Positions 34,251-60,474 of a stretch of DNA of 64,000 bases are shown one piece after another. How positions within the stretch are numbered: position 1 is the first letter of the stretch; the number at the start of each line of letters is the position of its first letter. The stretch covers positions 1-64,000 of the IMG/VR virus record IMGVR_UViG_3300027509_000001; one strand, 5' to 3'. The DNA comes from a virus. Its lineage: Duplodnaviria; Heunggongvirae; Uroviricota; Caudoviricetes. Position numbers and translations under genes: made by a program. The notes below the pieces were generated by a model. It saw nothing but the letters and a program-made list of their open reading frames with translations, ran no database searches and was not told where the DNA came from.

Positions 34251-34583
34251 TTAACACCGTGGAACACCTTGTTCAGGGTCATACCAACCATGTACTGAAG
34301 AAAGCTTCCAGCCGGGGTACGGACAAGACCCATGTTTACTAACCATAAAATCAAATTTTTTGCCCAATTCTTTCAAACTTGGTTTTGAGTGTATAGCATT
34401 TAATTTATCTTGATGTTCCTTGTTTCCCATGGACGGATCTATGTCATGTACAAATACCAATGATAAATGCTTTTCAATTTGTTGAATTTGGGAGGAAGTT
34501 AGGCTTTTTTCTTGTGGAGGTATATGGTTAAATCCAACTTCAAAAAAGCCTTGGAGCCAATAACAAAAATCTCTAGTTGTCAT
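34251..34583 (-). CDS. hypothetical protein
   Basis: 110-aa ORF. Confidence 0.4.
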   Translation of the reverse strand: MTTRDFCYWLQGFFEVGFNHIPPQEKSLTSSQIQQIEKHLSLVFVHDIDPSMGNKEHQDKLNAIHSKPSLKELGKKFDFMVSKHGSCPYPGWKLSSVHGWYDPEQGVPRC

Positions 34584-34600: not shown

Positions 34601-34677
34601 TAGTGTAGAAGGGGATCGAACCCTCATGTTACCAATTACTCTTTCTACAAGATATAAGCTTGAGGAGATACTACACT
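34601..34677 (-). tRNA. tRNA (isotype unresolved)
   Basis: Perfect 7-bp acceptor stem AGTGTAG/CTACACT; T-arm GAGGG-TTCGATC-CCCTT; 77 nt. Confidence 0.5.
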
Positions 34678-35313
34678 ATTTTTTATAAGTTGAATTTCAT
34701 TCTTTTTCAATATTATTAAATTATTAACAACTTTCCATTTACATCGATCTCTTTCTCTTTCAAATCCCTTAACCTCAATATATTTATCGTAATCAATTAA
34801 ATAAAAATCTGGAAAATATAAATGTATTTTATTATTCCATTCATATTCAAATGGTTTCATTTCATTTGTCCATTTAATATCATGTTCATCTAACCATTTT
34901 GCTACTTCTAATTCCCAATTTCCTTTTAATTTAAATCCATTATAATTAAAAGTTTTAACTCGACCTGACACATTACTACTCGAATAACTTTCAGGGTTAT
35001 TTTTAACGGCAAGTAACATTGCAGTAGAATGCCGTTTTCTTCTTTCAAGTGACCAAGTCTGATTTTTTCCGGCGATCGAGAGTTTTTGTCTAGTTTCCTT
35101 TGAAATTATAGGTTTAGGTAAACCTAATAATTTTGCTTTAGTATATTGATTTTTAAAATTTTTTTTAATTTTTCCAGCTTTTACTTTTTTATTATAATCT
35201 ACGAATGGACTAATTCTGTTGGGCTTGTTATGCCATCCCATATGGGAATTCAGTCCATTTTGTGATTTGTATTCTTTATTACATTTACTACATTTAAACA
35301 TATCTTTTAACAA
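34645..35313 (-). CDS. zinc-finger + PD-(D/E)xK-like endonuclease (homing-endonuclease-like), paralog A
   Basis: N-terminal 'CSKCNKEYKSQNGLNSHMGWH'; C-terminal 'YFPDFYLIDYDKYIEVKG'; the C-terminal ~110 aa are nearly identical to 39096..39746; the 3' end overlaps a tRNA. Confidence 0.55.
   Translation of the reverse strand: MLKDMFKCSKCNKEYKSQNGLNSHMGWHNKPNRISPFVDYNKKVKAGKIKKNFKNQYTKAKLLGLPKPIISKETRQKLSIAGKNQTWSLERRKRHSTAMLLAVKNNPESYSSSNVSGRVKTFNYNGFKLKGNWELEVAKWLDEHDIKWTNEMKPFEYEWNNKIHLYFPDFYLIDYDKYIEVKGFERERDRCKWKVVNNLIILKKNEIQLIKNSVVSPQAYIL
34690..34990. repeat. ~250-300-bp near-identical repeat, copy 1 (3' part of the HEG-like gene)
   Basis: Nucleotides 34700-34925 are almost identical to 39160-39385. 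Confidence 0.7.
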
Positions 35314-35360
35314 TAAATATGTAAAAATTTTAATAAAAGTAACATGTACTTACCAAAAAG

Positions 35361-35437
35361 CGTTCTATGATTGGATTTGAACCAACTATCTTCACTTTGC
35401 AATGTGATGCTTCTGCCTGAATATAGCTCCTTAGAAC
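35361..35437 (-). tRNA. tRNA-like gene (non-canonical anticodon loop in my hand fold)
   Basis: T-arm GTTGG-TTCAAAT-CCAAT; acceptor GTTCTAA/ATAGAAC; the anticodon arm folds as TCAC-ATTGCAAA-GTGA with an 8-nt loop. Confidence 0.4.
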
Positions 35438-35529
35438 GAATGAGTTTTTGCCACAATGGGCGGTCATCAGAACTCTAACTGTGCCGTTATATACGTTGAA
35501 CGGAAGCCGTTAAAGACCCACACTACGAT

Positions 35530-35551
35530 TCGCTGGCCTAGCGACTTTTTT
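35530..35551 (+). terminator. rho-independent terminator-like hairpin on the + strand inside the tRNA array
   Basis: 'TCGCTggcctAGCGA' followed by 'cTTTTTTc'. Confidence 0.4.
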
Positions 35552-35659
35552 CTTAAAAAATAAAGAGCCACGCAAGACTCTCCAGTCTCGAATCCTTTTT
35601 ATTATTTAATGTGAAGATCAAGATAACTTCATTGCAGTATTTTATAGGACTCTTTATTC

Positions 35660-35745
35660 AGTGGGCGAGGTGGGATTCGAACCCCAATGTTTACAAATTT
35701 CTTCTAATTAAATAGTGTCATGAATTTATCTAATTCAAAATCTGC
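35660..35745 (-). ncRNA. tRNA-like fragment or other small RNA
   Basis: 'GGGATTCGAACCCC' T-arm signature, but I could not find a matching 5' acceptor strand. Confidence 0.25.
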
Positions 35746-35819
35746 TCATTGTTTTACAAAACCTTTTGGGCTACGGATTTACGCGTCCGCTTGATTCACC
35801 GATATCAGCACTCCCATTT

Positions 35820-36362
35820 TTATTTTAAACCTAATTCAAATACCATTTTGTATATATTAGCTAGTTTGTCATATATCATATTAAATATATCTGCCAATAA
35901 ATCTTTTATAACCCATAAAGGAATACTGAATGGCCATAAGCTCATCCATCTAATAGAATCTAGTTTTAACGACTTTAACCAACTTTCTTTTGCGTCTTCT
36001 GAGCTGGTGTTATATATATGCTCGTTATTAGTTTTTTTGGCCAGATCCTTATCTCGCTGTAATAACTTTTGGTACTCCTCTTTCTTTTCTCTAGCAGAAA
36101 AATATGCCCTAATAAACGAATATATAATTCCTATAATTGCATATATTAATATATTTTGCCAAGAAAATAAACTAAATACTGATTCAGTATCTTGATGCCA
36201 ATGTACACCCACAAAAATTGCAAAAGCTGCCATAGCTATCGAACCATTTTCTTTCCAATCAGATAATATAAATAAAAATGCAAGGATAGCAAATGATCCC
36301 CAATAATATTTAGAAGAACCAAATAAGCTTCCAATAGTAAAAAAATCAATTAAAGAATTCAT
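35820..36362 (-). CDS. multi-pass membrane protein
   Basis: 180 aa with about 4 TM segments. Confidence 0.45.
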   Translation of the reverse strand: MNSLIDFFTIGSLFGSSKYYWGSFAILAFLFILSDWKENGSIAMAAFAIFVGVHWHQDTESVFSLFSWQNILIYAIIGIIYSFIRAYFSAREKKEEYQKLLQRDKDLAKKTNNEHIYNTSSEDAKESWLKSLKLDSIRWMSLWPFSIPLWVIKDLLADIFNMIYDKLANIYKMVFELGLK

Positions 36363-36382
36363 ACTAAATAATTTTGTTTTAG

Positions 36383-36451
36383 TTTCGCGAACTGGGTTCG
36401 AACCAGCCTGTTCTCAGATATGAGCCGTGAACGTCTCCTAGGACCCGCGAA
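36383..36451 (-). tRNA. tRNA-like gene (short, 69 nt)
   Basis: Acceptor TTCGCGG/TCGCGAA; T-arm GCTGG-TTCGAAC-CCAGT. Confidence 0.35.
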
Positions 36452-36452
36452 A

Positions 36453-36986
36453 TTATTTATTCTCTGTAAAAAATATACCAGGTATGCCATCTATTGTAGC
36501 CTTTCCAATTCGATAACTAGAGGGTAAATTTTTATCTAAGATTAACTTGTATATTTTCATTTTCTGTGAATCAGAAACAAAATCCCTACCTAATTTATCT
36601 CTTGCTCCAAATACAAATACTGGTAATTTTTCATTCCATTTTCTTGCTTGATCTGTTTCTTTTTTTATTACAACTTTGCATATTTCAACGACCGTTTTTA
36701 AAATTCGAATTAAATATTTATAGTTGCTTTTTCGGAATTGATCATCTTTTCCAGAAATATCGAATCCTATATTATATAGATATCCGCGCTCACCAACAAT
36801 CTTAGGCAATTTTACTTTCATTAAAGATCTAGAACTGATTCGAGTAAAGTCTACATTAACTCGGTCGTCCTTATCAGTAGTAAAAGAAGTGTAATGTCCA
36901 TTAACTGAAAATTTATAGGGTTTAACGTTTTTTAGATCGCCTATTTCATTAATAACCGATTCGCTTAATAAATCTCTTAATTTCAT
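36453..36986 (-). CDS. hypothetical protein
   Basis: 177-aa ORF inside the tRNA array. Confidence 0.45.
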   Translation of the reverse strand: MKLRDLLSESVINEIGDLKNVKPYKFSVNGHYTSFTTDKDDRVNVDFTRISSRSLMKVKLPKIVGERGYLYNIGFDISGKDDQFRKSNYKYLIRILKTVVEICKVVIKKETDQARKWNEKLPVFVFGARDKLGRDFVSDSQKMKIYKLILDKNLPSSYRIGKATIDGIPGIFFTENK

Positions 36987-37192
36987 TTTAATGCTTTTAA
37001 ACCATCTAATAGTTTTCTTTTAATTTTTACTGGAATTTCATCAACTTCAATTGTTTCAGGTTTTGGTTCCCAGTCAGTAGTTGTTTTTTGAACGGCTTTC
37101 TTACCAGTACTGCAAAGAACTTTATAGTTGTTATTTGCCAACGTGCCTATAATAACACAATACCCAGCATATTTTTGTTTTAAGTACTTCAT
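36983..37192 (-). CDS. hypothetical protein (start trimmed to MKYLKQKY)
   Basis: The track ORF 36983..37309 runs into a tRNA gene; the internal Met at 37192 avoids the overlap. Confidence 0.35.
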   Translation of the reverse strand: MKYLKQKYAGYCVIIGTLANNNYKVLCSTGKKAVQKTTTDWEPKPETIEVDEIPVKIKRKLLDGLKALK

Positions 37193-37232
37193 ACTGCAAT
37201 ATATATAATTATTTTGACAATAACAAATGTTT

Positions 37233-37307
37233 GCGACCGATGAAGGACTCGAACCTTCTCCTCTCCCTCCATAGGGGAGTAATGCTACACTTATACACCA
37301 CTCGATC
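37233..37307 (-). tRNA. tRNA-like gene
   Basis: T-arm GAAGG-TTCGAGT-CCTTC; clean anticodon arm CTCCC-CTATGGA-GGGAG; 6/7 acceptor pairs. Confidence 0.45.
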
Positions 37308-37532
37308 AATTAAAAACAGTATTTCCTGAAAAACTTAACTCGAATACTTGATTGCAAATATTCCCTCAACTTTACGAGCGACCACAATGTGGAATTAATG
37401 CCCTAGTTCCCTTCGTTGAACATCATATTATTGGTGACCTACTTCCTTCCTTAAAAGGTATTGAAGTACTCATAAATCAAAATTAAGTGAAAAGAGTTTA
37501 CTGTTCGGTTATTCTCTTTCATTTCTTATTCG

Positions 37533-37607
37533 TCGCGTGACGTGGACTCGAACCACGGACCTACCGGTTAAGTGACCGGCCGCTCTAGCCAACTGAGCTA
37601 CCACGCA
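37533..37607 (-). tRNA. tRNA (canonical D-arm; anticodon loop ambiguous)
   Basis: 'TAGCTCAGTTGGCTAGAGC' D-arm, T-arm CGTGG-TTCGAGT-CCACG, acceptor TGCGTGG/TCACGCG. Confidence 0.5.
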
Positions 37608-37688
37608 AAGAAACTTTCATTTCTCTTTTTGATGCTTATCGCGAAATACATTTAAAGAGGTCTGCAAACAAAAAACAAAAGTTTCTAG

Positions 37689-37779
37689 TGGTAAAGATAG
37701 GATTCGAACCTATCGACCTCCCGGATCAAGTACCTAATTAGTACCATAGCCAGTCGCTCTTCCATCTGAGCTATTCACC
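37689..37779 (-). tRNA. long-variable-arm-type tRNA (91 nt; Ser/Leu/Tyr class?)
   Basis: D-arm 'GCTCAGATGGAAGAGC', T-arm ATAGG-TTCGAAT-CCTAT; the length implies a long extra arm or an insertion. Confidence 0.45.
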
Positions 37780-38042
37780 TTATAATTTTTAAAAATTGAA
37801 CAAAATATCATTCCATATCCTTTATCTATCCATCTTTTATACGCTAATGAACCATTAATGTAAACATATAACTCATTGCCAATTTTTTCTTTATGTATCA
37901 TTTTGTTTATTGTTAAAAAGCACCGGTTTATTAAACTCTCGGAGCACTTTCCGTTTATAAAAGTACCGCTTCGATATTAGTTTTAGCTAATAAGAAGATA
38001 GGCGGTGGCCTTCGAAATGCTTATTAATGAAATAAGACTCTT

Positions 38043-38158
38043 ACATACAGGCCGCATTGGTAGGATTCGAACCTACAATAGTACCATACTTTTTCAGCCG
38101 ACGCTTACTTTCCGGATTCGAACCGTATCTCCCTTTCACAGGCGCTTTACCATTTCGC
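38043..38158 (-). tRNA. tRNA-like gene with a ~40-nt internal insertion (116 nt)
   Basis: 3' half CGCATTG..GTAGG-TTCGAAT-CCTAC-CAATGCG with its 5' acceptor partner ~110 nt away; contains a second internal TTCGAATCC box. Confidence 0.3.
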
Positions 38159-38166
38159 TACAATGC

Positions 38167-38267
38167 GATTTTTTGTGCAGACAATTGGATTCGAACCAAT
38201 GACCTCTGGGCTAATTTATAAATCTGGCCAGATTTTTGTTTTTGCCACTTGCGCTCTGCCACTGAGC
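38167..38267 (-). tRNA. tRNA-like gene with an internal insertion (101 nt)
   Basis: Acceptor GCGGACA/TGTCTGC, canonical D-arm 'TAGCTCAGTGGCAGAGC', T-arm ATTGG-TTCGAAT-CCAAT; ~30 extra nt between the D-arm and the T-arm. Confidence 0.4.
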
Positions 38268-38428
38268 TATGTCCGCTAATTTCTAGTATAAGGTTCGCAC
38301 TTATATTGGCTCCCTCAACGGAGCTATTTTCAAACTACAAGGTGTTTTCGTTGCATCTTTTGATAATAGATCTTTGCTATCTACTTAATGCAGTTACTTT
38401 GCCAAGTCTTAGTTAAATTAACTAGAAG

Positions 38429-38500
38429 TGAAATAGGCAGGATTCGAACCTGCAACCCCCCGCAAACAGGGCGCTCTACGCCATTTGGAGCTACTATTTC
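38429..38500 (-). tRNA. tRNA (possibly Ala-TGC-like; fold imperfect)
   Basis: Perfect acceptor GAAATAG/CTATTTC, D-stem GCTC/GAGC, T-arm GCAGG-TTCGAAT-CCTGC, loop region 'TTTGCGG'. Confidence 0.45.
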
Positions 38501-38513
38501 ATGATTTGCAAAA

Positions 38514-38834
38514 TTATACTAATGTTTCTATGTCTTTGACATGATAAATTTTAATTTCTTCTATACTATGAATTCCGCCATATGGTCCTGAGGGAACATA
38601 TTCGTAAAACCAATCTAATTGTTCTCGTGTACATTCTGGATAAATTTCCGATGGTACCTTTTCACTGTTATTATGAGTTGGCCACGTATGAGCATATCCT
38701 GGTTTCTTTTTCAAGGCTGCAATCGCATTGATTACTGGCATAATTAGTGTTAATGTTTTATCATCAATTTCATTCATTTCCGCCACATAATCGGCGTCAT
38801 TATGATCGCCTTTAATCCATATAAATTTCTTCAT
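38514..38834 (-). CDS. hypothetical protein (start trimmed to MKKFIWIKG)
   Basis: The track ORF's N-terminus overlaps a tRNA-like element; the internal Met avoids it. Confidence 0.4.
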   Translation of the reverse strand: MKKFIWIKGDHNDADYVAEMNEIDDKTLTLIMPVINAIAALKKKPGYAHTWPTHNNSEKVPSEIYPECTREQLDWFYEYVPSGPYGGIHSIEEIKIYHVKDIETLV

Positions 38835-38851
38835 GATTTGAATTTTTGTGG

Positions 38852-38930
38852 AAAGAGCAGGATTCGAACCTACAAAGGTCATCGCTAGCAGACGTCTTTA
38901 CGTTATTGCGTCAAACCTACTACCTACCGG
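38852..38930 (-). ncRNA. tRNA-like element (T-arm GTAGG-TTCGAAT-CCTGC; incomplete cloverleaf)
   Basis: Good T-arm and 3' acceptor 'TCTTTCC-A', but no convincing full-length 5' half. Confidence 0.25.
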
Positions 38931-39027
38931 GTTTCATTACGGATGATTCTTTTGCAACTTCCTCATTTTCACTACTAACCAGCGCGTTTACCATTTTCGC
39001 CATCTTTCCTTTTTTATAACGTCTCAG

Positions 39028-39114
39028 TGGCGAGAGTGGGACTCGAACCCACACGTCCTTACGACTCTGGGTTATGAGCCCAGCCAGGCATACCGTCAGC
39101 CTTGTATTCTCGCT
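39028..39114 (-). tRNA. long tRNA-like gene (87 nt) with candidate anticodon CAT
   Basis: T-arm GTGGG-TTCGAGT-CCCAC; anticodon arm CTGGG-CTCATAA-CCCAG; long extra arm; position 1/72 mismatch. Confidence 0.4.
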
Positions 39115-39746
39115 ATTTTAAATTTATTATCTTTAATAAGTTGTATTTCCTTTTTCTTGATTACAACTAAATTATTAACAACTTTCCATTTACATCGATC
39201 TCTTTCTCTTTCAAATCCCTTAACTTCAATGTATTTATCGTAATCAATTAAATAAAAATCTGGAAAATATAAATGCATTTTATTATTCCATTCATATTCA
39301 AATGGTTTCATTTCATTTGTCCATTTAATACCGTGTTTATCTAACCATTTTGCTACTTCTAATTCCCAACGACCTTTTAACTTAGTACCCTTATATTCGT
39401 ACGTTTTTACTCTACCCGACACATTATTTTTGCTATATGAATCTGGGTTATTAGCAACGACTTCTTTCATTTTTATGGAGTGTAACAATCTTTTTTCTTT
39501 AGTCCAAAACTTAGAATTAAATTCCTTACTCCTCTTCCTCATCTTTGCCCTAGATTCTTCAGACCAATATTGTGGTTTCCGTGACTTATATGGACTTTTT
39601 TCTTGCATTATTTTTGAATGCTGTTGCTTTCTTTCTATAGTCCACTTTTTCCGAATTATTCTATTTTCGTTTGATTTACAGAAAGTTTGATGTCCTGTTA
39701 ATTTCTTTTTATTGTCAACTTCTATATTACAGTATTTACATTTCAT
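39096..39746 (-). CDS. zinc-finger + PD-(D/E)xK-like endonuclease (homing-endonuclease-like), paralog B
   Basis: N-terminal 'CKYCNIEVDNKKKLTGHQTFC'; C-terminus nearly identical to 34645..35313; the 3' end overlaps a tRNA-like gene. Confidence 0.55.
   Translation of the reverse strand: MKCKYCNIEVDNKKKLTGHQTFCKSNENRIIRKKWTIERKQQHSKIMQEKSPYKSRKPQYWSEESRAKMRKRSKEFNSKFWTKEKRLLHSIKMKEVVANNPDSYSKNNVSGRVKTYEYKGTKLKGRWELEVAKWLDKHGIKWTNEMKPFEYEWNNKMHLYFPDFYLIDYDKYIEVKGFERERDRCKWKVVNNLVVIKKKEIQLIKDNKFKIARIQG
39150..39450. repeat. near-identical repeat, copy 2
   Basis: Nucleotides 39160-39385 match 34700-34925. Confidence 0.7.
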
Positions 39747-39790
39747 ACAGTAATATATAGTAGGCTAGGCAGTTACCACAACTTTATCTC

Positions 39791-40069
39791 TTAAAATTCT
39801 ATGTCCAACTTGCTAACTGTGTGACCCATTTTGTGGAGCTTCCATGTCAAGTCTTTAATAGAACTTAATATTTCTTTTTCTAATTTCTTTTTCTCAATAT
39901 CACTTAATTGACTGTCATTATAACTTCCAATTGAATATTTTGTTAATTTGTCTTGCCCAATAAATTTTTTAGCCATAATATCTATGTTTATTTTCGTAAA
40001 GATGTTCTTCTTGATATATAAATAACATATTTTCCGATAATTGGGGTGGAATGTCATTTTTAGACCCAA
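39791..40069 (-). CDS. hypothetical protein
   Basis: 92-aa ORF. Confidence 0.35.
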   Translation of the reverse strand: MGLKMTFHPNYRKICYLYIKKNIFTKINIDIMAKKFIGQDKLTKYSIGSYNDSQLSDIEKKKLEKEILSSIKDLTWKLHKMGHTVSKLDIEF

Positions 40070-40316
40070 CCTTACAAATTAAATTTGGAATTTGCTTCCT
40101 CCAATATGCAATTATCTCTTTAAATTCTTCTAGGCTTTTTATTGGAAAATCTATATATCCGTACTCGTCCTCTGAATAAGTCCCTCTATTTTGAACTACT
40201 CGAACGGCATCATATCTCACTAATTCATTTTTCCATTCCCACTCTATTCGTTCTAGTTCAGTTGCATGTGTGAATTTTAAATTTCCATTTCTTGTTTCTA
40301 TTATATTCATTGTCAA
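39969..40316 (-). CDS. hypothetical protein
   Basis: 115 aa; a promoter-like motif lies immediately upstream. Confidence 0.4.
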   Translation of the reverse strand: MTMNIIETRNGNLKFTHATELERIEWEWKNELVRYDAVRVVQNRGTYSEDEYGYIDFPIKSLEEFKEIIAYWRKQIPNLICKVGSKNDIPPQLSENMLFIYQEEHLYENKHRYYG

Positions 40317-40317
40317 T

Positions 40318-40347
40318 TGTTTTTAATTACAATGTAAATATACAAAT
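40318..40347 (-). promoter_or_regulatory. promoter-like motif copy
   Basis: 'ttttaattacaatgtaaatatacaaatata' is nearly identical to 22141-22170. Confidence 0.4.
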
Positions 40348-40560
40348 ATATATTTTAAAATCCAAATGACTGCCTTTAAAAGATTTGAACTTTTAAACTT
40401 CCAACCTATTGTCTCTTTTTCCAACCTATTAATGTTTTCTTCAAAAGATATCGTTGATCGGTGTGCCCACTACACTATGACAATTGGAACGTTGCAACAT
40501 CCCAGCCCCATAAATAACGCTAATTATTTGTCGGGTCTTTCATTCAAGTTTAGAGTTGTG

Positions 40561-40634
40561 TATCCCGCCCCGGGTTCGAACCGAGAATCTTTGCATAGAA
40601 AGTGCAACGGCTTAGCCAGTTTGCCCAGCGGGAC
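40561..40634 (-). tRNA. tRNA-Glu (anticodon TTC)
   Basis: Hand fold: acceptor GTCCCGC/GCGGGAT; anticodon arm TTGCA-CTTTCTA-TGCAA; T-arm CTCGG-TTCGAAC-CCGGG; 74 nt; the 5' end resembles bacterial tRNA-Glu. Confidence 0.55.
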
Positions 40635-40756
40635 ATCATTAATACCATTAACCTTTAGTTACTGGAACTGCTGGTGCAGGTACTAATTTTGTTCTGATGA
40701 ATTTTCGTTTGAACATAATTTTTACTTTTTAAAGTTGTGTTAATGATTTTATTTCG

Positions 40757-40828
40757 CTCCGAGTACAGGGCTCGAACCTGTGACAAAGACTTACAAGGTC
40801 CCCGTTTTCCCATCTAAACTAACCCGGA
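40757..40828 (-). tRNA. tRNA-Thr (anticodon TGT)
   Basis: Acceptor TCCGGGT/ACTCGGA; anticodon arm GGGAC-CTTGTAA-GTCTT; T-arm ACAGG-TTCGAGC-CCTGT; 72 nt. Confidence 0.5.
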
Positions 40829-40940
40829 ATTTTAACCAACATGTCAATGAACTTAATTTAAGGCATTTAAAGTATATATCCTTTCATAAGTTAAATATAC
40901 AATTAAATTTACTATTTTCCAAATTAATTTGATATTATTT

Positions 40941-41255
40941 TTAATTTAATGTATAATTAATAGTTTTTTCGTAGCTATTTCCAAACAAATCTTGAGACTG
41001 ACTAGTTAATACTTGTATATTGAATAAATTTGCGATGTGTAAATGCATATTTCTAAAATAATGCAGAACTAACTTTGGAGAATTCATTTGCATTGATCTT
41101 ACTATATCATCTTCTCTAACAGATTTAGAGGGATGTACATGTTCAATATAAGATTTTATAAAATTTATATCTCGGTCATTGTATGCATTATTTTGATTTG
41201 ATTGTTCAAGTTTTAACCGATGCATTAAATATTCGTATGCAAATTTAGCTGTCAT
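40941..41255 (-). CDS. hypothetical protein
   Basis: 104-aa ORF. Confidence 0.4.
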   Translation of the reverse strand: MTAKFAYEYLMHRLKLEQSNQNNAYNDRDINFIKSYIEHVHPSKSVREDDIVRSMQMNSPKLVLHYFRNMHLHIANLFNIQVLTSQSQDLFGNSYEKTINYTLN

Positions 41256-41965
41256 TAGTTTAATTGTTTAATTGTTAATTTATTGTGTTCGTATATAACA
41301 TACCAACCATTTTCAATAGAATCTATATTTAAATATTTAGACCCAGTAGCCTTTTCAAAATGCTTTATACATATAGATTGGCTATAAGAATGACCAAAAA
41401 TCTGTATAAAATTCTTCTTTAATATTCCATTTTTGTTTGCCCTCATTAAAGATGGTGGTCTAATCCAAAGTGGGCCTGAAATAGGATCATTTCCAGTTGG
41501 AGAAAATCCAACAAAATCGAATTTATTTGGTCGATACCTATATAAATCATTTATCGAATCTTCTAATGTTTCAATGTCCCACCCCAATAAATTATTATCT
41601 AACCACTTTTCACTAATTCCTGCGTGGCTAATTAACAAATTATCATGAATGTGTGCTATTGACATATTACGTAAATTATCTCGTATAGCAAATTCAAAGT
41701 CCCATCTAAAAGTTGGTTGATATCCCTCATACCGCTGATCTACTAAATAATGGTGGTCATGATTTCCTATTAATAGGATAACTTCTATATCAGAAGTCCT
41801 TTGATATTTGACTATTTCATTGAAATTATTTAACTGATCAACAGCTTTAATATCAAATGAATCAAAATAGTCTCCAACAAAAATGACTTTGTCTGGAGTT
41901 TCTTCTTTGATTATACGTTTCCATACATCTCTTCCATGAGTGTCTCCAAGTAATAAAGTTTTCAT
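41255..41965 (-). CDS. calcineurin-like metallophosphoesterase (Ser/Thr phosphatase-like)
   Basis: 'LLGDTHGR', 'FVGDYFD', 'LIGNHDHHY' are the classic phosphoesterase motifs. Confidence 0.65.
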   Translation of the reverse strand: MKTLLLGDTHGRDVWKRIIKEETPDKVIFVGDYFDSFDIKAVDQLNNFNEIVKYQRTSDIEVILLIGNHDHHYLVDQRYEGYQPTFRWDFEFAIRDNLRNMSIAHIHDNLLISHAGISEKWLDNNLLGWDIETLEDSINDLYRYRPNKFDFVGFSPTGNDPISGPLWIRPPSLMRANKNGILKKNFIQIFGHSYSQSICIKHFEKATGSKYLNIDSIENGWYVIYEHNKLTIKQLN

Positions 41966-50071: not shown

Positions 50072-50522
50072 TGTCTAATAATTTGTTTCGTAATCGATTT
50101 AGTTTATATTGTTTATGAGGCATTATATCATCTATTAGATTTCCCATTTCTTCAACTTGGGATAACATAATCATGACATCTGCTAATTCTTCGCATAAAT
50201 TATCGTAAGTTTTGTTATTAGGACTTCTCCTATATTTCCTTATTGCCAATGCCAATTCTATACATTCTTCTTGAACCATATCCAATTGTTGGTCATGCCC
50301 CCATAATTCTACGGCGCCTGCGTATATTTGATCATCTGATATCTTTGTTAGTTTTTTTATTAATTCTTTATCTTTTAAAGCCCGATCAGTATAATCTCTT
50401 TCAATTGAATGGCCACATTTCCAACATGCTTTAAATCCATCTTCTGGTTTTGTTGATTTGCCTGTATCGTGGCCGCAGTTTTTGCAAGGCTGATACCATA
50501 CATCATAATCTCCTAATTTCAT
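50052..50522 (-). CDS. zinc-ribbon + MazG-like pyrophosphatase fusion
   Basis: N-terminal 'CKNCGHD..CWKCGH'; C-terminal 'VQEECIELALAI...LCEELADVMIML' (EExxE/E..D). Confidence 0.5.
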   Translation of the reverse strand: MKLGDYDVWYQPCKNCGHDTGKSTKPEDGFKACWKCGHSIERDYTDRALKDKELIKKLTKISDDQIYAGAVELWGHDQQLDMVQEECIELALAIRKYRRSPNNKTYDNLCEELADVMIMLSQVEEMGNLIDDIMPHKQYKLNRLRNKLLDNGWTFE

Positions 50523-51253
50523 ATTTCCATAATTAATTCGGTTAACAATGCCATTGCATTCAATTCCTTGTCAATGCATAAACTGTCTTGATATGCATAT
50601 TTCCCAATAACTAAAATAACTGGAGCGATTTTATTTGGAGCATATTGGTCTAGATTATTAAATAAGTAGGAATATAATTCATCAAAAGACCTAACTTTAC
50701 TATCTGCAACTATTTGTCTAATAGATTTAAATTTATCTTTTGGATTTTTATTAGATGCCAATTCGGTTACTACTTTTGAAAGATAATTACTTTCCATTCT
50801 AGTGGCTTCTGACAATGCTAGTTTACCACCAATTGAATTTGTTTGCAGTAAATTTATAACCAACCTAATGTCCGGATATCCTTGGTTTACAAGCGTAGCC
50901 AAATCTTGTTTATTGAATTCAACATTTTCTTCTTTAAGTATTTGCACCATTCGCAATGCTACTTCCTTTTTAGATGGAGGTATAACGTTAAAAGAAACAC
51001 ATCTAGATTGCAATGCTTCGATTATTTTCTCTACATAATTACATGTTAATATGAACCTACAATGCTTTGAAAAAGTTTCCATTACATTACGCAATGCCGC
51101 CTGGGCGTTGGGGGTTAGAAAATCACAATTGTGAGTTAACGTTTCATTTTGCCCGATATAGAAGTTATGATTTCCCTCTACAGATATATCGTATACGTGA
51201 CCAGTCTTATTTAATTTCTTTACGCTTTTTATTTTTATTTGTTCCAATTCCAT
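50519..51253 (-). CDS. C-intein segment fused to the C-terminal half of a gp44/RFC-like clamp-loader ATPase
   Basis: N-terminal 'GHVYDISVEGNHNFYIGQNETLTHN|C' (intein blocks F/G plus the +1 Cys), then sensor-1 'FILTCN' and 'SRC' RFC boxes. Confidence 0.65.
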   Translation of the reverse strand: MELEQIKIKSVKKLNKTGHVYDISVEGNHNFYIGQNETLTHNCDFLTPNAQAALRNVMETFSKHCRFILTCNYVEKIIEALQSRCVSFNVIPPSKKEVALRMVQILKEENVEFNKQDLATLVNQGYPDIRLVINLLQTNSIGGKLALSEATRMESNYLSKVVTELASNKNPKDKFKSIRQIVADSKVRSFDELYSYLFNNLDQYAPNKIAPVILVIGKYAYQDSLCIDKELNAMALLTELIMEI

Positions 51254-52235
51254 CGTATAATTTTTGAAGTTGTATTTTATTTTTTTCTAATTTAAAATCT
51301 GTTTCGTCAATATAATCAAGTATATTATATTCATTAACCCATATGAATTTTATATCATTGTCCTTGCAGTAATTTATGACAGATTGCATTTTATGTTTTT
51401 GCTTTTGCCATTGTGATTTTGGTTTTATTTCAAATAGTATATTCTTCTCTAGATCATGAAAATCTGCAATATATGTTCGGGACTTTCCATTTGCATCTAC
51501 ATATGGAATTCTTAATTTTTCATATAGCAAATGCTTATTTGAAGCCCAGAAACATGCCTCCCAAGAACTTCTAAATTTAAATTCGTTACCATCGAAATAT
51601 ATAATAGATGTCCAATGCGTCCAACTATTGCTAATAGGAGGAAAGAATTCTCCGTTTGCAATTTTCCTTTTCATTGTAATGCTATTTTTCAAAGCCACTT
51701 GCTTTAAATTTTCCTGCCCTTTTTCGGTTTTGTAAAATTCAGTCATTTTAATTGAGTTCTTTTTTCCGATCCGTTTAGCTACTTTGTTGCCTTCAGATGT
51801 TTTATAAAAATTCAATTTTGCTTTAGATATCTTATCTTTAGTTTCTTCACTTTGTGGTTTTCTGTTCCATGTTCGATTTTTAACACACTCTTTGCAATAT
51901 TTTCCTGTGAATCTACCTTCTCGATTACAAGAACATTTTTTAATAGTACCATGTTTTTTAACAAGTATTTTACATTCCTTACAGTATTTTGAATTCCAAG
52001 CATTTGCAGTATACCCGTTATTGCAATCTTCGCATATGTGCTCTTTGAAGTATACTACTCCGCCAAAATTATTTCTTTTTGCTGCAATTGACAATTTTCT
52101 TTTATATTCAAAAACTAGTTCATCGTATTGAACTTTACTAATGATTCCTGCCGCTAGTTTTTCTTTCCATATTACAAACGGTGATGTATTTTTTACCTGT
52201 ACTTTCATGTTTAATATATAGTTCTGCTTGAGCAA
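51207..52235 (-). CDS. free-standing homing-endonuclease-like gene between the intein halves
   Basis: Multiple zinc ribbons (CEDC..CKEC..CSC..CKEC), NUMOD-like K-rich repeats, C-terminal 'IADFHDLEKNILFEIKPK' (PD-(D/E)xK-like). Starts at TTG, in frame, 2 codons after the TAATAA that closes the N-intein ORF. Confidence 0.5.
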   Translation of the reverse strand: MLKQNYILNMKVQVKNTSPFVIWKEKLAAGIISKVQYDELVFEYKRKLSIAAKRNNFGGVVYFKEHICEDCNNGYTANAWNSKYCKECKILVKKHGTIKKCSCNREGRFTGKYCKECVKNRTWNRKPQSEETKDKISKAKLNFYKTSEGNKVAKRIGKKNSIKMTEFYKTEKGQENLKQVALKNSITMKRKIANGEFFPPISNSWTHWTSIIYFDGNEFKFRSSWEACFWASNKHLLYEKLRIPYVDANGKSRTYIADFHDLEKNILFEIKPKSQWQKQKHKMQSVINYCKDNDIKFIWVNEYNILDYIDETDFKLEKNKIQLQKLYDGIGTNKNKKRKEIK

Positions 52236-52241
52236 AACTTA

Positions 52242-52877
52242 TTAAATAATCGGTGTACCTGGAGAAATTATTGATTCATACGTATGCAATTCATCGGTCT
52301 TTACAACCTTTATTTCATTGTTCTCATCGTAAACATGCCATTTATGCTCAGCAGTACATTTCACTGTTTCTCCATTTTCTAATTCTATTTCCCATAATTC
52401 TTGTTCTCCTTTATCCCAAAAATAAAATGGTTGCCATTCGATTTGATTTGTTTTGAAGTTGTAACTTTTTACTAAGTCAGTTTCTTCTATTAATTCTTCA
52501 ATTGGAACCTTTATATAATTTCCCTCTCTGAGAATACTTACTAGCGTCCCTTCTAATAAACACTCATCAAGAATTATAACTTTCCAGTCATTAAATCCTA
52601 CATTCGAAGCAAATGTTTTTACCTTATTTCTAATAACTTCTACACTATTTTCATCTGAAGCATTAATATAAATGTGATCGCAATTAATTTCTGATACTAA
52701 AATTTTTGCGAGGGATGTTTTTCCAGTCCCAGAACTTGCATGTAGCAATAAATGTGGCATGTCATTATTATCAATATAATTTGCTATGGCCTTTTTAATA
52801 TCTTCGTTTCCAATATATTCAGACATTGTTTTTGGACGATAGCGTTCCGCCCATAACGAATTAGTTAATTTGTTCAT
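52242..52877 (-). CDS. N-terminal half of a gp44/RFC-like clamp-loader ATPase fused to an N-intein segment
   Basis: RFC box 'WAERYRPKT', Walker A 'ASSGTGKTS', Walker B 'VIILDE', then 'CLLEGTLVSIL' (intein block A) and 'CTAEHKWH' (block B), ending in TAATAA. Confidence 0.65.
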   Translation of the reverse strand: MNKLTNSLWAERYRPKTMSEYIGNEDIKKAIANYIDNNDMPHLLLHASSGTGKTSLAKILVSEINCDHIYINASDENSVEVIRNKVKTFASNVGFNDWKVIILDECLLEGTLVSILREGNYIKVPIEELIEETDLVKSYNFKTNQIEWQPFYFWDKGEQELWEIELENGETVKCTAEHKWHVYDENNEIKVVKTDELHTYESIISPGTPII

Positions 52878-56929: not shown

Positions 56930-57844
56930 TTATTTTTTAAAATTGAAAAATTTATTAATTAATGCATTGAATTCTATATTACCAAAATCTAATGCATCCC
57001 AATAATTTTGGATTTTGTTTTCTAATCTGCTTTCAAATATTCTAACTCGGTCTGCATATGTTTCCATATATTCTAATATTTCTGGAGGATTGCTTTCTCT
57101 AGATATTGCAAACGAATCAAACTTCCATGGATTATCTATTAGATATGCCCACATAATTTTGTCTCCTTCTTTTATAGGAGGCATCGATGCTATACCTAAT
57201 TTATCCATTAAAGCATTGTGATTCAAAGCTGCTTTATAATGAACTGGCGTTCTTTTTTTAAACTCTCCAAATTTACCAGTTTTCCATTTGTCTAGGCTGT
57301 TAACTCCTACTGGTATTAATATGTCTGATAGCTTTTGTGTTGGCAATGATTGTTTGAAATCTCTTACCATTTCGTTTAATTCCTCTTTCGAAGAGTCATG
57401 TAATATACAATCTAATATCTTTTCAACAAATGATTTAAATTTTAATGGAAAATCTGCCCTGACTGAATCCAATCCCTTTACATCCATTTTGTTTTTAGCT
57501 ACACCTTCTTCGTCTACAATCCATTGAGCATAACGTTTTTTAGCTATCCATAATGCTCTTTTTGCAATTAATTCTTGCTTTATATCCCACCCGTGATCTG
57601 TTACATTATGCAACTTTAAAGCATATGTATCGTAACTTTTATTAATGTAAGATTGGACATCATTGATTATTGGTTTTGATAATGCAATAATTTCTTCATC
57701 AGTATAGTTATCCATAGGTCCATGGCGATGCACAAATAATGGTTCTATTGGTTCGAATATGCTGTCCGTATCAGTATATATACAAAAATTATAATATGTA
57801 TTATGTTGATTATCAGCTAGTTGTGTTATATTTTTAATTTTCAT
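56930..57844 (-). CDS. family-B DNA polymerase, C-terminal part (43B-like)
   Basis: Motif C 'IYTDTDS' (YGDTDS) and the 'KKRYA' KKRY motif. Confidence 0.7.
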   Translation of the reverse strand: MKIKNITQLADNQHNTYYNFCIYTDTDSIFEPIEPLFVHRHGPMDNYTDEEIIALSKPIINDVQSYINKSYDTYALKLHNVTDHGWDIKQELIAKRALWIAKKRYAQWIVDEEGVAKNKMDVKGLDSVRADFPLKFKSFVEKILDCILHDSSKEELNEMVRDFKQSLPTQKLSDILIPVGVNSLDKWKTGKFGEFKKRTPVHYKAALNHNALMDKLGIASMPPIKEGDKIMWAYLIDNPWKFDSFAISRESNPPEILEYMETYADRVRIFESRLENKIQNYWDALDFGNIEFNALINKFFNFKK

Positions 57845-58673
57845 TTTCCAAATAATTTAAACATTTTCTTAGTACCTTTAATGGATTTTCTTTGTAATCT
57901 ATGTAATTTACCCTCAATATAGTAAATCCAAATGAATTTGTTAATTCGTCTCTGAATTTATCTTTTTCTGGGTCGTGCCAGTATTTGCAATCAAATTCTA
58001 TTATCTTGTCTCCCAATAAAAAATCGAATTTGTAATATCTGCCATTTGTTACCAATTTATATTCTCCATAATTTTCTGCAAATAAGGCCTCGTCTTTCTT
58101 TGCCGGGGGCAAAAATTCGTATATATTCCAAAATAACTCCTGAGATATATTGCTATAATTTCCAAACTTATTGGCTTCAATTCGATTTTCATCTTTATAA
58201 TATTCATAATCATCACTTGTCCAGTTATATTCAGACATTATAAATTCCCTAAATGATTTATATTCTGAAATACGCTCATGAGGTTGTTTAATTTTTGGTC
58301 CATTATTAAAATTATTGTTGATACGTGTTTGTCGAAGTGCTTTCTTTATTTTATTTTTATTAAACTGATCAAATTCTTTTTTAGTCATTCCATGTTGCTG
58401 AGACATATATTCAAAGCTATTTGTTTCTGCCTGACGATTACAATAAATTTGCCAACGATGCTGTCCTTTTTCAACACCATATCGCTTTATCATATTTTCA
58501 AGTGTCTGCTTTCTCTTAGCAGTAATTGATGGATGTTCTAAAACTGCGCCTGGGAATTTTGCTGAATACGATTTAAACGTCATATCATGTTTATGTTTCA
58601 GGTGAGTGGTTGATATTCGTTTATACCAATTTAAACATTCTAAGCATTGGATTCTATTTGTGTCATCATTCAT
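57834..58673 (-). CDS. zinc-finger + PD-(D/E)xK-like endonuclease (homing-endonuclease-like) in the polB insertion
   Basis: N-terminal 'CLECLNWYKRISTTHLKHKH' (same finger type as the tRNA-array genes); C-terminal 'KFDFLLGDKIIEFDCKYWHD'. Confidence 0.45.
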   Translation of the reverse strand: MNDDTNRIQCLECLNWYKRISTTHLKHKHDMTFKSYSAKFPGAVLEHPSITAKRKQTLENMIKRYGVEKGQHRWQIYCNRQAETNSFEYMSQQHGMTKKEFDQFNKNKIKKALRQTRINNNFNNGPKIKQPHERISEYKSFREFIMSEYNWTSDDYEYYKDENRIEANKFGNYSNISQELFWNIYEFLPPAKKDEALFAENYGEYKLVTNGRYYKFDFLLGDKIIEFDCKYWHDPEKDKFRDELTNSFGFTILRVNYIDYKENPLKVLRKCLNYLENEN

Positions 58674-59137: not shown

Positions 59138-59470
59138 TTAACTGTTAGTCCCATTGTCTTTTATTTTATAGTCATATGATAAATCCTCTTCTTTTATGCT
59201 ACCTGGAATTTCCATGTCATTGTAATTATACATTATTTCAAATAATATTTTTAAATCCCTTTCAGGTTGTTCAAAAAAGTTATGCTGAATTGGTTCAAGT
59301 TTAAAATAATCATTTTCCAATGCATAATAATCTTGAAAATCCATGGCATGTTTGTACTTAAGATGAGTTATTGTTATTTTTTTAAATACTTCTCCGCATA
59401 TTAAACATTCACGATATCGTCTTGAAATATTCGAAAATATATTTTCCTTCATGCTTATCAAATCCATCAT
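59138..59470 (-). CDS. zinc-finger protein (HEG-associated finger only)
   Basis: 'CLICGEVFKKITITHLKYKH'. Confidence 0.4.
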   Translation of the reverse strand: MMDLISMKENIFSNISRRYRECLICGEVFKKITITHLKYKHAMDFQDYYALENDYFKLEPIQHNFFEQPERDLKILFEIMYNYNDMEIPGSIKEEDLSYDYKIKDNGTNS

Positions 59471-60474
59471 GCTAATTTTACTTTTATATTTTTATAATTC
59501 TTATTGAAAATATACATTGATATCGAATGTAGTTCTATATATTCTTTAATTGAATTATAAATCTTACCTGTTTCTAGGCATTTCAACTTGGTATAATTGC
59601 CTCCAGTACCATCTAGATGTCGAAGTTTCATTCTATCAGCTGATATTTTAGCTAAGCGTTTAAGTTCTTTCTTTGATTTATTCTTTTTACTATTACTTAT
59701 CTTTTGTTTATGCCCTTTAGTTAATACCTTTCCCCTAAATGCGTCTCCTATCTTTTTTCTTCGTTTGGATTCGGTAATTGGGTCTACTATTCTATTTAAT
59801 TGAGCTTCTGACATTCGTTGTATTTGTTTTTTTGTGTATACTCCAGTTCTTCCTTTGTTCCATGGAATTTGACCAATATGAGAATCTGATAATTTTTTTC
59901 TGTGTTCGCTGCTTTTCATTTTAGTTAAAAATTTATCGTGCCACCCATCAACGTTATCTTTTCTACTTTGTATTACACTTTTACTGATTTTCTGTCGTGT
60001 TTTTTGTGTCTTTGGCTTATTACAATACCTTTTGAAAGCAGTAGAATTTTTTAAGCTATTGGATATTAATAATTTGGTTTTATTTGATACCTTTCTTCCT
60101 GTACGAACTTCACTTAATAACTGCCTATACTCGATTGAGTTGTACATTGAATTTGGATCTGCCCATAACGCCTTTACCGCTTCACTTATTTTTTTATTTA
60201 CTATGGGCCCTAAATTTCCGCCATTTCCACCAGACGAAATATTATATTCTGGTTTATACAAGTCTATATAAAATATTTCATAATAATCGGCTTCTTCTCG
60301 TGTATCAACATTAATTACTATTTCCTTTTTAAAAGATTCCAGGCCATATTTATGTATCGCCAATTTTATTAATTTACCTGAACCATAATAGTTTATAGAG
60401 TCTTCAGGTGCCTTAGAAGATTGCCCTATATAGATTTTACCATTAATTTTATTTGTTATTTTGTAGATGTACAT
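59467..60474 (-). CDS. GIY-YIG homing endonuclease
   Basis: 'MYIYKITNKINGKIYIGQS' (GIY...YIG) plus a basic NUMOD-like C-terminal DNA-binding region. Confidence 0.7.
   Translation of the reverse strand: MYIYKITNKINGKIYIGQSSKAPEDSINYYGSGKLIKLAIHKYGLESFKKEIVINVDTREEADYYEIFYIDLYKPEYNISSGGNGGNLGPIVNKKISEAVKALWADPNSMYNSIEYRQLLSEVRTGRKVSNKTKLLISNSLKNSTAFKRYCNKPKTQKTRQKISKSVIQSRKDNVDGWHDKFLTKMKSSEHRKKLSDSHIGQIPWNKGRTGVYTKKQIQRMSEAQLNRIVDPITESKRRKKIGDAFRGKVLTKGHKQKISNSKKNKSKKELKRLAKISADRMKLRHLDGTGGNYTKLKCLETGKIYNSIKEYIELHSISMYIFNKNYKNIKVKLA

Follow-up and report, generated by a model that had tools for sequence, protein, structure and literature searches.

A cluster of transfer RNA (tRNA) genes in an AT-rich tailed phage (Caudoviricetes) has probably been colonised by free-standing homing endonuclease genes (HEGs), which are analogs of SegB of phage T4 but possess a different nuclease fold. 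A probability of roughly 0.65 is given to this reading. The cluster occupies positions 34601 to 40828, on the minus strand, of a stretch of 64,000 nucleotides (nt) from IMG/VR record IMGVR_UViG_3300027509_000001 (positions 1 to 64,000), which is referred to below as the window. The window has a GC content of 31% and encodes a family-B DNA polymerase, a gp44-like clamp loader, a DNA ligase and an M23 peptidase; the region is a tRNA-gene cluster of a phage with a T4-like replication module. A megablast search of INPHARED with 30-45 kb gave no close relatives. The two nuclease genes, designated HEG1 and HEG2, and a segment that they share are as follows.

34645-35313, minus strand: HEG1, a C2H2 finger and a PD-(D/E)xK nuclease, with its likely start at the ATG at 35301
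39096-39746, minus strand: HEG2, a C2HC/C2H2 finger and a T7-endonuclease-I-like PD-(D/E)xK nuclease, matching phrog_15137; a paralog of HEG1
34719-34928, minus strand: near-identical block of 210 nt in the nuclease-domain coding region, 96% identical (201/210) to 39170-39379

The nuclease genes, their neighbours and their relatives

A preliminary description of this DNA, made without database searches, had proposed two paralogous zinc-finger/PD-(D/E)xK open reading frames (ORFs) within the array, each ending inside a tRNA-like gene. Both points were borne out. HEG1 and HEG2 are intact paralogs with 56% protein identity. HEG1 overlaps the tRNA-like unit t14 by 33 nt, its last 11 codons being encoded by t14, and HEG2 overlaps unit t3 by 19 nt, with its stop codon inside t3. 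PHROG 15137 'endonuclease' matches both proteins over their full length (E 3e-37 for HEG1 and 2e-34 for HEG2). Pfam family PF05367 (Phage_endo_I) scored 20.3 and 24.2 bits, below its cut-off of 29.1, and the proteins thus appear to be related to this family without being members of it by the Pfam threshold. Pfam also gave a weak C2H2 finger match for HEG1 and a weak, sub-threshold resemblance of the HEG family to DUF7487, and no match to the GIY-YIG domain in HEG1 or HEG2.

Proteins of the family start with a C2H2 zinc finger and end with the nuclease domain, with NUMOD3-like helices in between. In an alignment of 35 homologs, the finger residues C8, C11 and H24 are invariant, as are E134, P168-D169 and E180-V181-K182 of the nuclease domain. 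The latter are the catalytic residues E...PD...(D/E)xK of the PD-(D/E)xK superfamily; the restriction-endonuclease-like alpha/beta fold of that superfamily is present as well. Comparison of the family profile with the PDB identified T7 endonuclease I (1m0d, E 4e-5), whose catalytic E, PD and ExK line up with those of the family (ELEV..PDF..EVK in HEG2), and classical C2H2 fingers (E about 4e-4), and the nuclease fold foreseen in the preliminary description was thus recovered. The AlphaFold model has a mean predicted local distance difference test score of 82.7, with values above 90 over the nuclease domain. The protein database contains 575 homologs at E<=1e-5, hardly any of which is informatively named.

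The two genes share a direct repeat of 300 nt with 89% identity (34677-34976 versus 39128-39427), in which the 210-nt block forms the core. The flanks are about 40-70% identical, and the core stops about 75 nt before the stop codon. A near-identical 3' segment of about 250 base pairs (bp), as first described, is therefore present with these lengths and identities, but it does not reach the extreme 3' end. Gene conversion between the paralogs would fit the 210-nt block, because a core of 96% identity stands between flanks of about 40-70%.

Homologs in other phages were studied at 10 IMG/VR loci (28-58% identity) and on three further contigs obtained from protein matches; these loci and other contigs compared are numbered with the prefix L. 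The homolog was found inside a tRNA array, on the tRNA strand, at 9 of the 10 loci and on all three contigs. Twelve distinct copies of the nuclease gene were counted, including the two in the window, and in 10 of them the ORF has a tRNA gene with anticodon CAU or UAU as its direct neighbour. In L001-3, L004, L006, L007/8, L145 and L147 this tRNA gene precedes the start codon by 65-81 nt; in both window copies, L005 and L146 the 3' end of the ORF overlaps it. Six of the 12 copies terminate within a tRNA gene, which is a canonical tRNA-Val in L001 and a canonical tRNA-Asp in L145. With about one to three CAU/UAU tRNAs in arrays of a dozen or more, chance is an unlikely explanation for this neighbourhood, as judged informally from array composition.

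The presence of the genes was compared with relatives that came from the protein database alone (L128, L140 and L141), as neither the flanking metallophosphatase nor ORF 36453-36986 had relatives in IMG/VR. The window itself appears to derive from contig Ga0079203_1000003 of JGI 3300005647. L128 and L141 belong to European Nucleotide Archive sample ERZ23487665, and the L128 ortholog of ORF 36453-36986 is 68% identical. Directly 5' of the t3 homolog, L128 carries a NUMOD3-bearing ORF and not the PD-(D/E)xK gene. Upstream of the L141 ortholog of ORF 34251-34583 are a canonical tRNA-Lys(CUU) and a non-coding stretch of 270 nt, but neither HEG1 nor t14; in L140 a GIY-YIG ORF abuts the ortholog of the same gene. 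The comparison at the tRNA sites for which the preliminary description had called thus revealed a related lineage that is without HEG2 (L128) and without HEG1 (L141). Collectively, these three contigs show patchy presence at a conserved locus and suggest, for the one related lineage examined, that the HEG1 and HEG2 sites are both variable and attract homing-type genes.

Furthermore, HEG1 and HEG2 combine a nuclease with a separate C2H2 DNA-binding module outside any intron or intein, as is expected of free-standing HEGs. No intron was found by Rfam, and both flanking units, t3 and t14, are complete, so HEG1 and HEG2 are not intron-borne.

SegB, a free-standing homing endonuclease of the GIY-YIG type, has a 27-bp site that includes an 11-bp T-psi-C motif, and when T4 is crossed with T2L it drives the inheritance of the tRNA region of T4 (PMC2330249). 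Homologs of SegB co-localise with tRNA genes without isotype preference, and in T6 SegB drives a segmental amplification of tRNA-Tyr that defeats Septu (PMC13096335). Like SegB, HEG1 and HEG2 are free-standing nuclease genes in a phage tRNA array, are absent from relatives and are associated with tRNA genes across phages. However, their nuclease is a PD-(D/E)xK domain of the T7-endonuclease-I type with no GIY-YIG domain, and they are tied to CAU/UAU tRNA genes, whereas no isotype preference has been reported for SegB (PMC13096335). The parallel with segB that had been drawn at the outset is therefore one between analogs and not homologs, and by this analogy HEG1 and HEG2 would work like SegB but outside the SegB family.

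Compared to other PD-(D/E)xK enzymes, HEG1 and HEG2 exhibit several distinct features. I-Ssp6803I is encoded in the group I intron of Synechocystis tRNA-fMet and has no zinc finger, whereas HEG1 and HEG2 lie between complete tRNA units. A HEG within a tRNA intron, as in the I-Ssp6803I system, was considered for the window and excluded, t3 and t14 being complete. I-Bth0305I and Vsr-like enzymes are found in phage introns, inteins and 'fractured genes', with protein-coding host genes as their niche; HEG1 and HEG2 belong to a different sequence family, with T7 endonuclease I as best match, and have tRNA arrays as their niche. Compared to T7 endonuclease I itself (PF05367), with which the catalytic residues align, they possess an added zinc finger and NUMOD-like region, occur in multiple copies and are patchily distributed. 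A second nuclease family, unrelated to that of SegB, fills the tRNA-cluster niche across many uncultured phages, and its apparent preference for Met/Ile tRNA genes, unlike SegB, points to a concrete target.

The tRNA-like array and its 77-nt family

The T-arm motif GGTTCRANYCC occurs 15 times in the 64-kb window, always on the minus strand and always within 34612-40778, compared to an expected 0.15 occurrences; none of 100 dinucleotide-preserving shuffles attained 15. About 13 had been estimated, likewise on the minus strand, in the preliminary description. ARAGORN with default settings called five tRNAs in the array, two of them with abnormal anticodon loops, and the Rfam tRNA model gave nine matches at or above the gathering score and three slightly under it (27.9, 27.5 and 26.3 bits), so tRNA predictors do recognise tRNAs in this region. 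Four of the Rfam matches are 91-161 nt long because of extra sequence within the anticodon region, and the T-arms at 36394 and 35673 have no Rfam tRNA match. Units were called by searching, upstream of each T-arm, for a 5' strand complementary to the 3' strand of the acceptor stem, and the candidates were folded. This resulted in 14 tRNA-like units from the 15 motifs, as t7 contains two.

40757-40828, minus strand: t1, canonical tRNA-Thr(UGU) (ARAGORN; Rfam 55.4 bits)
40561-40634, minus strand: t2, canonical tRNA-Glu(UUC) (ARAGORN; Rfam 49.8 bits)
39028-39114, minus strand: t3, initiator-like tRNA(CAU) (Rfam 27.9 bits)
38849-39009, minus strand: t4, 161 nt long, with some 85 additional nt in its anticodon region (Rfam 35.3 bits)
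38429-38500, minus strand: t5, shortened anticodon arm with a 6-nt loop or a 3-bp stem (ARAGORN 'tRNA-??? (tt)'; Rfam 43.9 bits)
38176-38276, minus strand: t6, unit of 101 nt, 29 of them extra, that lacks a convincing anticodon loop (Rfam 47.7 bits)
38052-38167, minus strand: t7, 116-nt unit around a second, nearly intact T-arm at 38114-38124 (Rfam 38.1 bits)
37689-37779, minus strand: t8, 91-nt unit with an extra anticodon-arm hairpin (Rfam 26.3 bits; fold; ARAGORN with a 4-nt 'anticodon')
37533-37607, minus strand: t9, body of a tRNA-Ile(GAU) with the anticodon arm replaced (Rfam 45.3 bits)
37234-37307, minus strand: t10, tRNA-His-like, anticodon AUG with A34 (ARAGORN; Rfam 33.6 bits)
36384-36451, minus strand: t11, 68-nt unit with reduced D arm and loop CUCAUAU (CAU); acceptor 7/7 pairs including one G-U wobble
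35659-35821, minus strand: t12, degenerate or split tRNA-like remnant with a 3-bp T stem and 5/7 acceptor pairs (T-loop motif)
35362-35436, minus strand: t13, weak tRNA with a 4-bp anticodon stem, UGC (Rfam 29.7 bits)
34601-34677, minus strand: t14, 77-nt non-canonical tRNA(UAU) (covariance model 92.9 bits, E 3e-23; family covariation)

A canonical tRNA was defined by a 7-bp acceptor stem, a D arm, a 5-bp anticodon stem, a 7-nt anticodon loop with U33 and a purine at 37, and a 5-bp T stem. Units t1 and t2 conform to this definition and t10 nearly does, while t3-t9 and t11-t14 do not. A minus-strand tRNA-gene array is thus confirmed, but the proposed count of about 13 tRNA genes was too high, as only Thr-UGU and Glu-UUC are fully canonical.

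Unit t14 closely resembles the element under the L005 homolog, although the acceptor stems of the two are wholly different yet complementary in each. A search with the pattern GTAATYGGTNACATGNGGGTTC identified 116 stretches in IMG/VR viral contigs and two among 185,579 species (one genome each); both of the latter are on contigs of metagenome-assembled genomes, one of which also has the nuclease gene. The matches yielded 67 distinct 77-mers, which align without gaps and share an invariant A73, with anticodon loops CUUAUAC/A/U, CUGAUAA or CUCAUAA and anticodons UAU (50), GAU (10) and CAU (7). Members do not have an ordinary D arm. Instead, nucleotides 11-13 pair with 37-39 and enclose the anticodon stem-loop, and this helix is followed by UAAUYGGUNACAU, with an invariant GG as in the D loop, and then by the T arm. 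The covariance model of the family comprises the 7-bp acceptor stem, helix 11-13:37-39 around a 4-bp anticodon stem, the loop C-U-N-A-U-A-N, GUAAUYGGUNACAU, the T arm and A73, and t14 belongs to the family by its score of 92.9 bits.

Covariation strongly supports this fold. Over the 67 sequences, 96% of cells are paired, and the covariation score of 0.72 drops to 0.18 in shuffled controls and to 0.13 or less when partners are slid. All 67 sequences form pairs 12:38 and 13:37, each with four pair types, and the otherwise invariant C11-G39 is A-U in Streptomyces phage Targaryen. The same structure was obtained by RNAalifold without guidance. These data provide strong evidence, of a comparative kind, that t14 is a real non-canonical tRNA kept by selection.

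The family escapes standard tRNA finders: ARAGORN calls one of 115 members. For 82 of these (71%), there is a canonical tRNA at a distance of 300 nt or less, in every case on the same strand. The element is present but unannotated in Kehishuvirus 'tikkala', where it sits in the gap between tRNA-Trp and tRNA-Met, and in Streptomyces phages Targaryen and Evy. In Targaryen (L126 1960-2571) the 77-nt gene begins 13 nt after an annotated 'nucleotidyltransferase' gene. AUA accounts for 46% of Ile codons in the window phage. This codon share, the nearby canonical tRNAs, the regular anticodon loop and the invariant A73 lend indirect support to possible processing, CCA addition, aminoacylation and decoding. 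The 77-nt tRNA is often redundant, because its loci also carry 101 canonical CAU/GAU/UAU tRNAs, and it could have a role beyond plain decoding. Like the D-armless mitochondrial tRNAs and the bacterial or phage allo-tRNAs (8/4 and 9/3), the t14 family departs from the cloverleaf; its members retain an acceptor stem and a T arm, and their anticodon loop is regular. Among allo-tRNAs, too, UAU is a frequent anticodon (PMC5389517). Compared to these groups, however, the family retains the 7/5 acceptor/T geometry, nests its anticodon arm in the 11-13:37-39 helix, has a D-loop-like GG segment after the helix and is nearly confined to viral contigs. A literature search, in which coverage of subscription journals was thin and an earlier description is therefore possible, found no prior description of the family; according to a 2024 paper, every known bacterial tRNA is a canonical cloverleaf (PMC11551756). 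If the family decodes, it would represent a non-cloverleaf tRNA working with bacterial ribosomes, and phage tRNA counts as well as arguments on codon usage and anti-defence would be systematically incomplete.

Among the remaining units, t3 resembles initiator tRNAs in its CAU anticodon, in the run of three G-C pairs at its anticodon-stem base and in a mismatch at 1:72; its variable arm is long and its D stem extended. Its homolog at L128 640-728 shows a compensatory change in the anticodon stem (CUGGG/CCCAG versus CCGGG/CCCGG) and keeps the 1:72 mismatch; a pattern search found no t3 homologs in viral contigs or in metagenome contigs, the latter set excluding the window's own sequence. The t6 homolog at L128 779-879 shows compensatory acceptor changes and conserves the insert in part, while the ARAGORN intron model of t6 is not conserved there. 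A pattern search for further t6 homologs returned five matches, all of them chance matches in coding DNA. Unit t11 occupies its entire intergenic gap and has a homolog at L128 2990-3060, and is called by neither Rfam nor ARAGORN. A single two-sequence comparison with L128 suggests that t3, t6 and t11 are kept by selection.

Unit t4 has 7/7 Watson-Crick acceptor pairs and a second, degenerate T-arm inside; ARAGORN models it as Thr(AGU) with an 83-nt insert, a weak model since the position and length of the insert are freely chosen. The outer acceptor of t7 likewise has 7/7 Watson-Crick pairs, and the unit has two T-loop motifs. The anticodon loop of t9 has 8 or 6 nt (UCACUUAA), and its ortholog at L128 959-1033 is a canonical tRNA-Ile(GAU), from which it differs, by eye, at four of 57 body positions and at about nine positions plus one indel in the 17-nt anticodon arm. 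An acceptor partner for t12 was sought upstream of its T-arm and none was found. Units t4, t7, t8, t9 and t12 would be mosaics or scars, left when paralogous tRNA genes were repeatedly cut and ectopically repaired from one another. Altogether, the aberrant units probably represent a mix of non-canonical tRNAs kept by selection and recombination mosaics or scars. Group I introns were rejected as the source of the interrupted tRNAs, the inserts being merely 26-85 nt and Rfam giving no intron at E<=10.

Several further observations were made on individual units and on similar genes elsewhere. The near-canonical t10 deviates in A34 and one acceptor mismatch, and 84% of the window's His codons are CAU. 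Phage tRNAs with a wobble A comprise this His-AUG (37234-37307) and an Asn-AUU (L001 2237-2309, L001-3), which fit strongly favoured U-ending codons. Anticodon loops of other than 7 nt recur: a tRNA-like gene at L128 1197-1271 (Rfam 47.9 bits), whose anticodon stem has 5 bp and whose loop GCGUAGGG has 8 nt, groups with t9 and t13. Long-arm tRNA-Met genes of 87-95 nt recur in phage contigs L003, L007 and L008, with a GUAAU motif in the variable arm as in the 77-nt family. Three over-long tRNAs (88-95 nt) at L007 5659-6324 are each followed downstream by a canonical tRNA with a matching anticodon, which is adjacent for Glu and Asn and about 120 nt away for Met; the long Glu copy terminates in an encoded CCA. 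Different homing-type genes stand directly 5' of a long-variable-arm, initiator-like tRNA-Met(CAU) at three loci, namely L127 4281-4849 (Kehishuvirus) with an HNH gene, L128 206-728 with the NUMOD3 ORF and 39028-39746 of the window with the PD-(D/E)xK gene.

The only minus-strand terminator-like hairpin with a U run in the array is at 35561-35584, between t12 and t13, and because of this hairpin the t13-HEG1-t14 segment is suggested to be transcribed apart from the upstream array. A non-coding block of about 215 nt at 37310-37525 (minus strand), between t9 and t10, is strongly conserved in L128 (1855-2105), with long identical runs that include CAGTAAACTCTTTTC and TCGAGTTAAGTTTTTC and indels whose lengths are not multiples of three. 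It has no Rfam match at E<=10 and may be a structured RNA of a new type or a regulatory leader.

Proposed mechanism and competing explanations

If HEG1 and HEG2 act as SegB does, the enzyme would, in a mixed infection, cut the tRNA-gene DNA of a related phage that has no nuclease gene, most likely at or beside a Met/Ile (NAU-anticodon) tRNA gene. Recombinational repair would then copy the nuclease gene and the neighbouring tRNA gene into the cut genome, as for SegB. More speculatively, RNase P processing of the downstream tRNA might strip the stop codon from the nuclease mRNA, because the ORF runs into that tRNA, and so keep expression low.

Several observations weigh against the proposal that SegB-like homing genes have colonised the cluster. 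T7 endonuclease I, which is nearest to them in sequence, is no homing enzyme but a junction resolvase. Canonical tRNA-Met genes adjoin the nuclease gene in other phages, and targeting of NAU tRNA genes therefore requires a site that is disrupted by the insertion itself. The comparison extends to a single related lineage (L128/L141). Moreover, the t6 insert is partly kept in L128, so that a pure 'scar' reading cannot cover all aberrant units. The relationship to T7 endonuclease I, the best PDB sequence match, together with the match to PHROG 9019 'Holliday junction resolvase' (E 1e-11), would also be expected if HEG1 and HEG2 were housekeeping nucleases, either junction resolvases or degraders of host DNA, with an incidental position in the tRNA cluster. 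This is considered improbable, as two diverged paralogs, each with a DNA-binding finger, are found in one genome, the nuclease gene is absent from the same sites in relatives, and the gene recurs inside tRNA arrays of unrelated phages with an NAU tRNA flanking 10 of 12 copies. Furthermore, the window is rich in other homing-type genes (GIY-YIG, HNH and an intein-associated ORF).

The interrupted units lead to two other explanations. Insertions of 26-85 nt in the anticodon region of several units, and a t4 that acquires a 5-bp stem and a regular 7-nt loop once 83 nt are removed, could point to a phage system of tRNA splicing or maturation in which HEG1 and HEG2 are RNA endonucleases that excise inserts from the array transcript. 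This is highly improbable. Splicing endonucleases (EndA) possess a Tyr-His-Lys catalytic triad, whereas the conserved residues here are the metal-binding E/D/ExK of DNases. No bulge-helix-bulge motif of the archaeal type was seen at the junctions by eye, with no formal search run, and the intron model of t6 is not kept in L128. No RNA ligase was seen in Pfam/PHROG scans of about 40 window ORFs, a subset, and the homologs elsewhere lie among uninterrupted tRNAs. Alternatively, the aberrant units might be, instead of scars or decoders, functional tRNA-like RNAs, serving as RNase P/Z signals between ORFs or as decoys or substitutes against tRNA-targeting defences, and the nucleases would matter mainly by amplifying or reshuffling them. 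Acceptor stems and T-arms that are intact while anticodon regions vary, the compensatory acceptor changes of t6 relative to L128, a t11 that takes up its whole intergenic gap and a t9 that has diverged from a canonical Ile gene in the anticodon arm alone are in line with such a role, as is the defeat of Septu by SegB-driven amplification of phage tRNA (PMC13096335). However, units without an anticodon loop are unable to decoy anticodon nucleases, and conservation was judged against one relative; this explanation is thought unlikely. A more tentative and doubtful extension of the homing proposal is that the 77-nt element under HEG1, with its more than 100 relatives, is an unrecognised working class of tRNA(Ile/Met), nearly virus-only, whose anticodon arm is nested in the D-stem-like helix, and that the nucleases attack ordinary Met/Ile tRNA genes and carry the cleavage-immune variant as cargo.

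Other homing-type genes of the window

The DNA polymerase gene polB is split into two minus-strand ORFs, 60510-62336 and 56930-57844, with three ORFs between the halves. One of these is a GIY-YIG/NUMOD3 ORF at 59467-60474. The other two, 59138-59470 and 57834-58673, share a CxxC...H...H finger with 50% identity over 30 amino acids, and the latter has a weak DUF559 match (DUF559/Vsr-like end). The C2H2-like finger noted in these two ORFs at the outset does occur, but it is of the ROS/MucR type, and the four-member family of mobile genes that had been proposed on this basis was not upheld: comparison of the polB-insert ORFs with the nuclease family of the tRNA array detected no homology (hhalign probability 0.3%).

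A distant relative of HEG1 and HEG2 is instead encoded by ORF 51207-52235 (hhalign E 7.6e-5, with 125 nuclease-domain columns aligned), a zinc-finger/NUMOD-like/TnsA-like nuclease. It lies within the gp44-like clamp-loader gene (50519-52877, minus strand), which is split such that the N-terminal splicing domain of an intein forms the end of ORF 52242-52877 and the C-terminal intein part forms the start of ORF 50519-51253; ORF 51207-52235 is located between the intein halves, and the locus has the split-intein 'fractured gene' arrangement. Just beyond the array, the minus-strand gene at 42510-43046 matches PHROG 'HNH endonuclease' (E 1e-12), and a calcineurin-like phosphoesterase gene (41255-41965) stands beside it.

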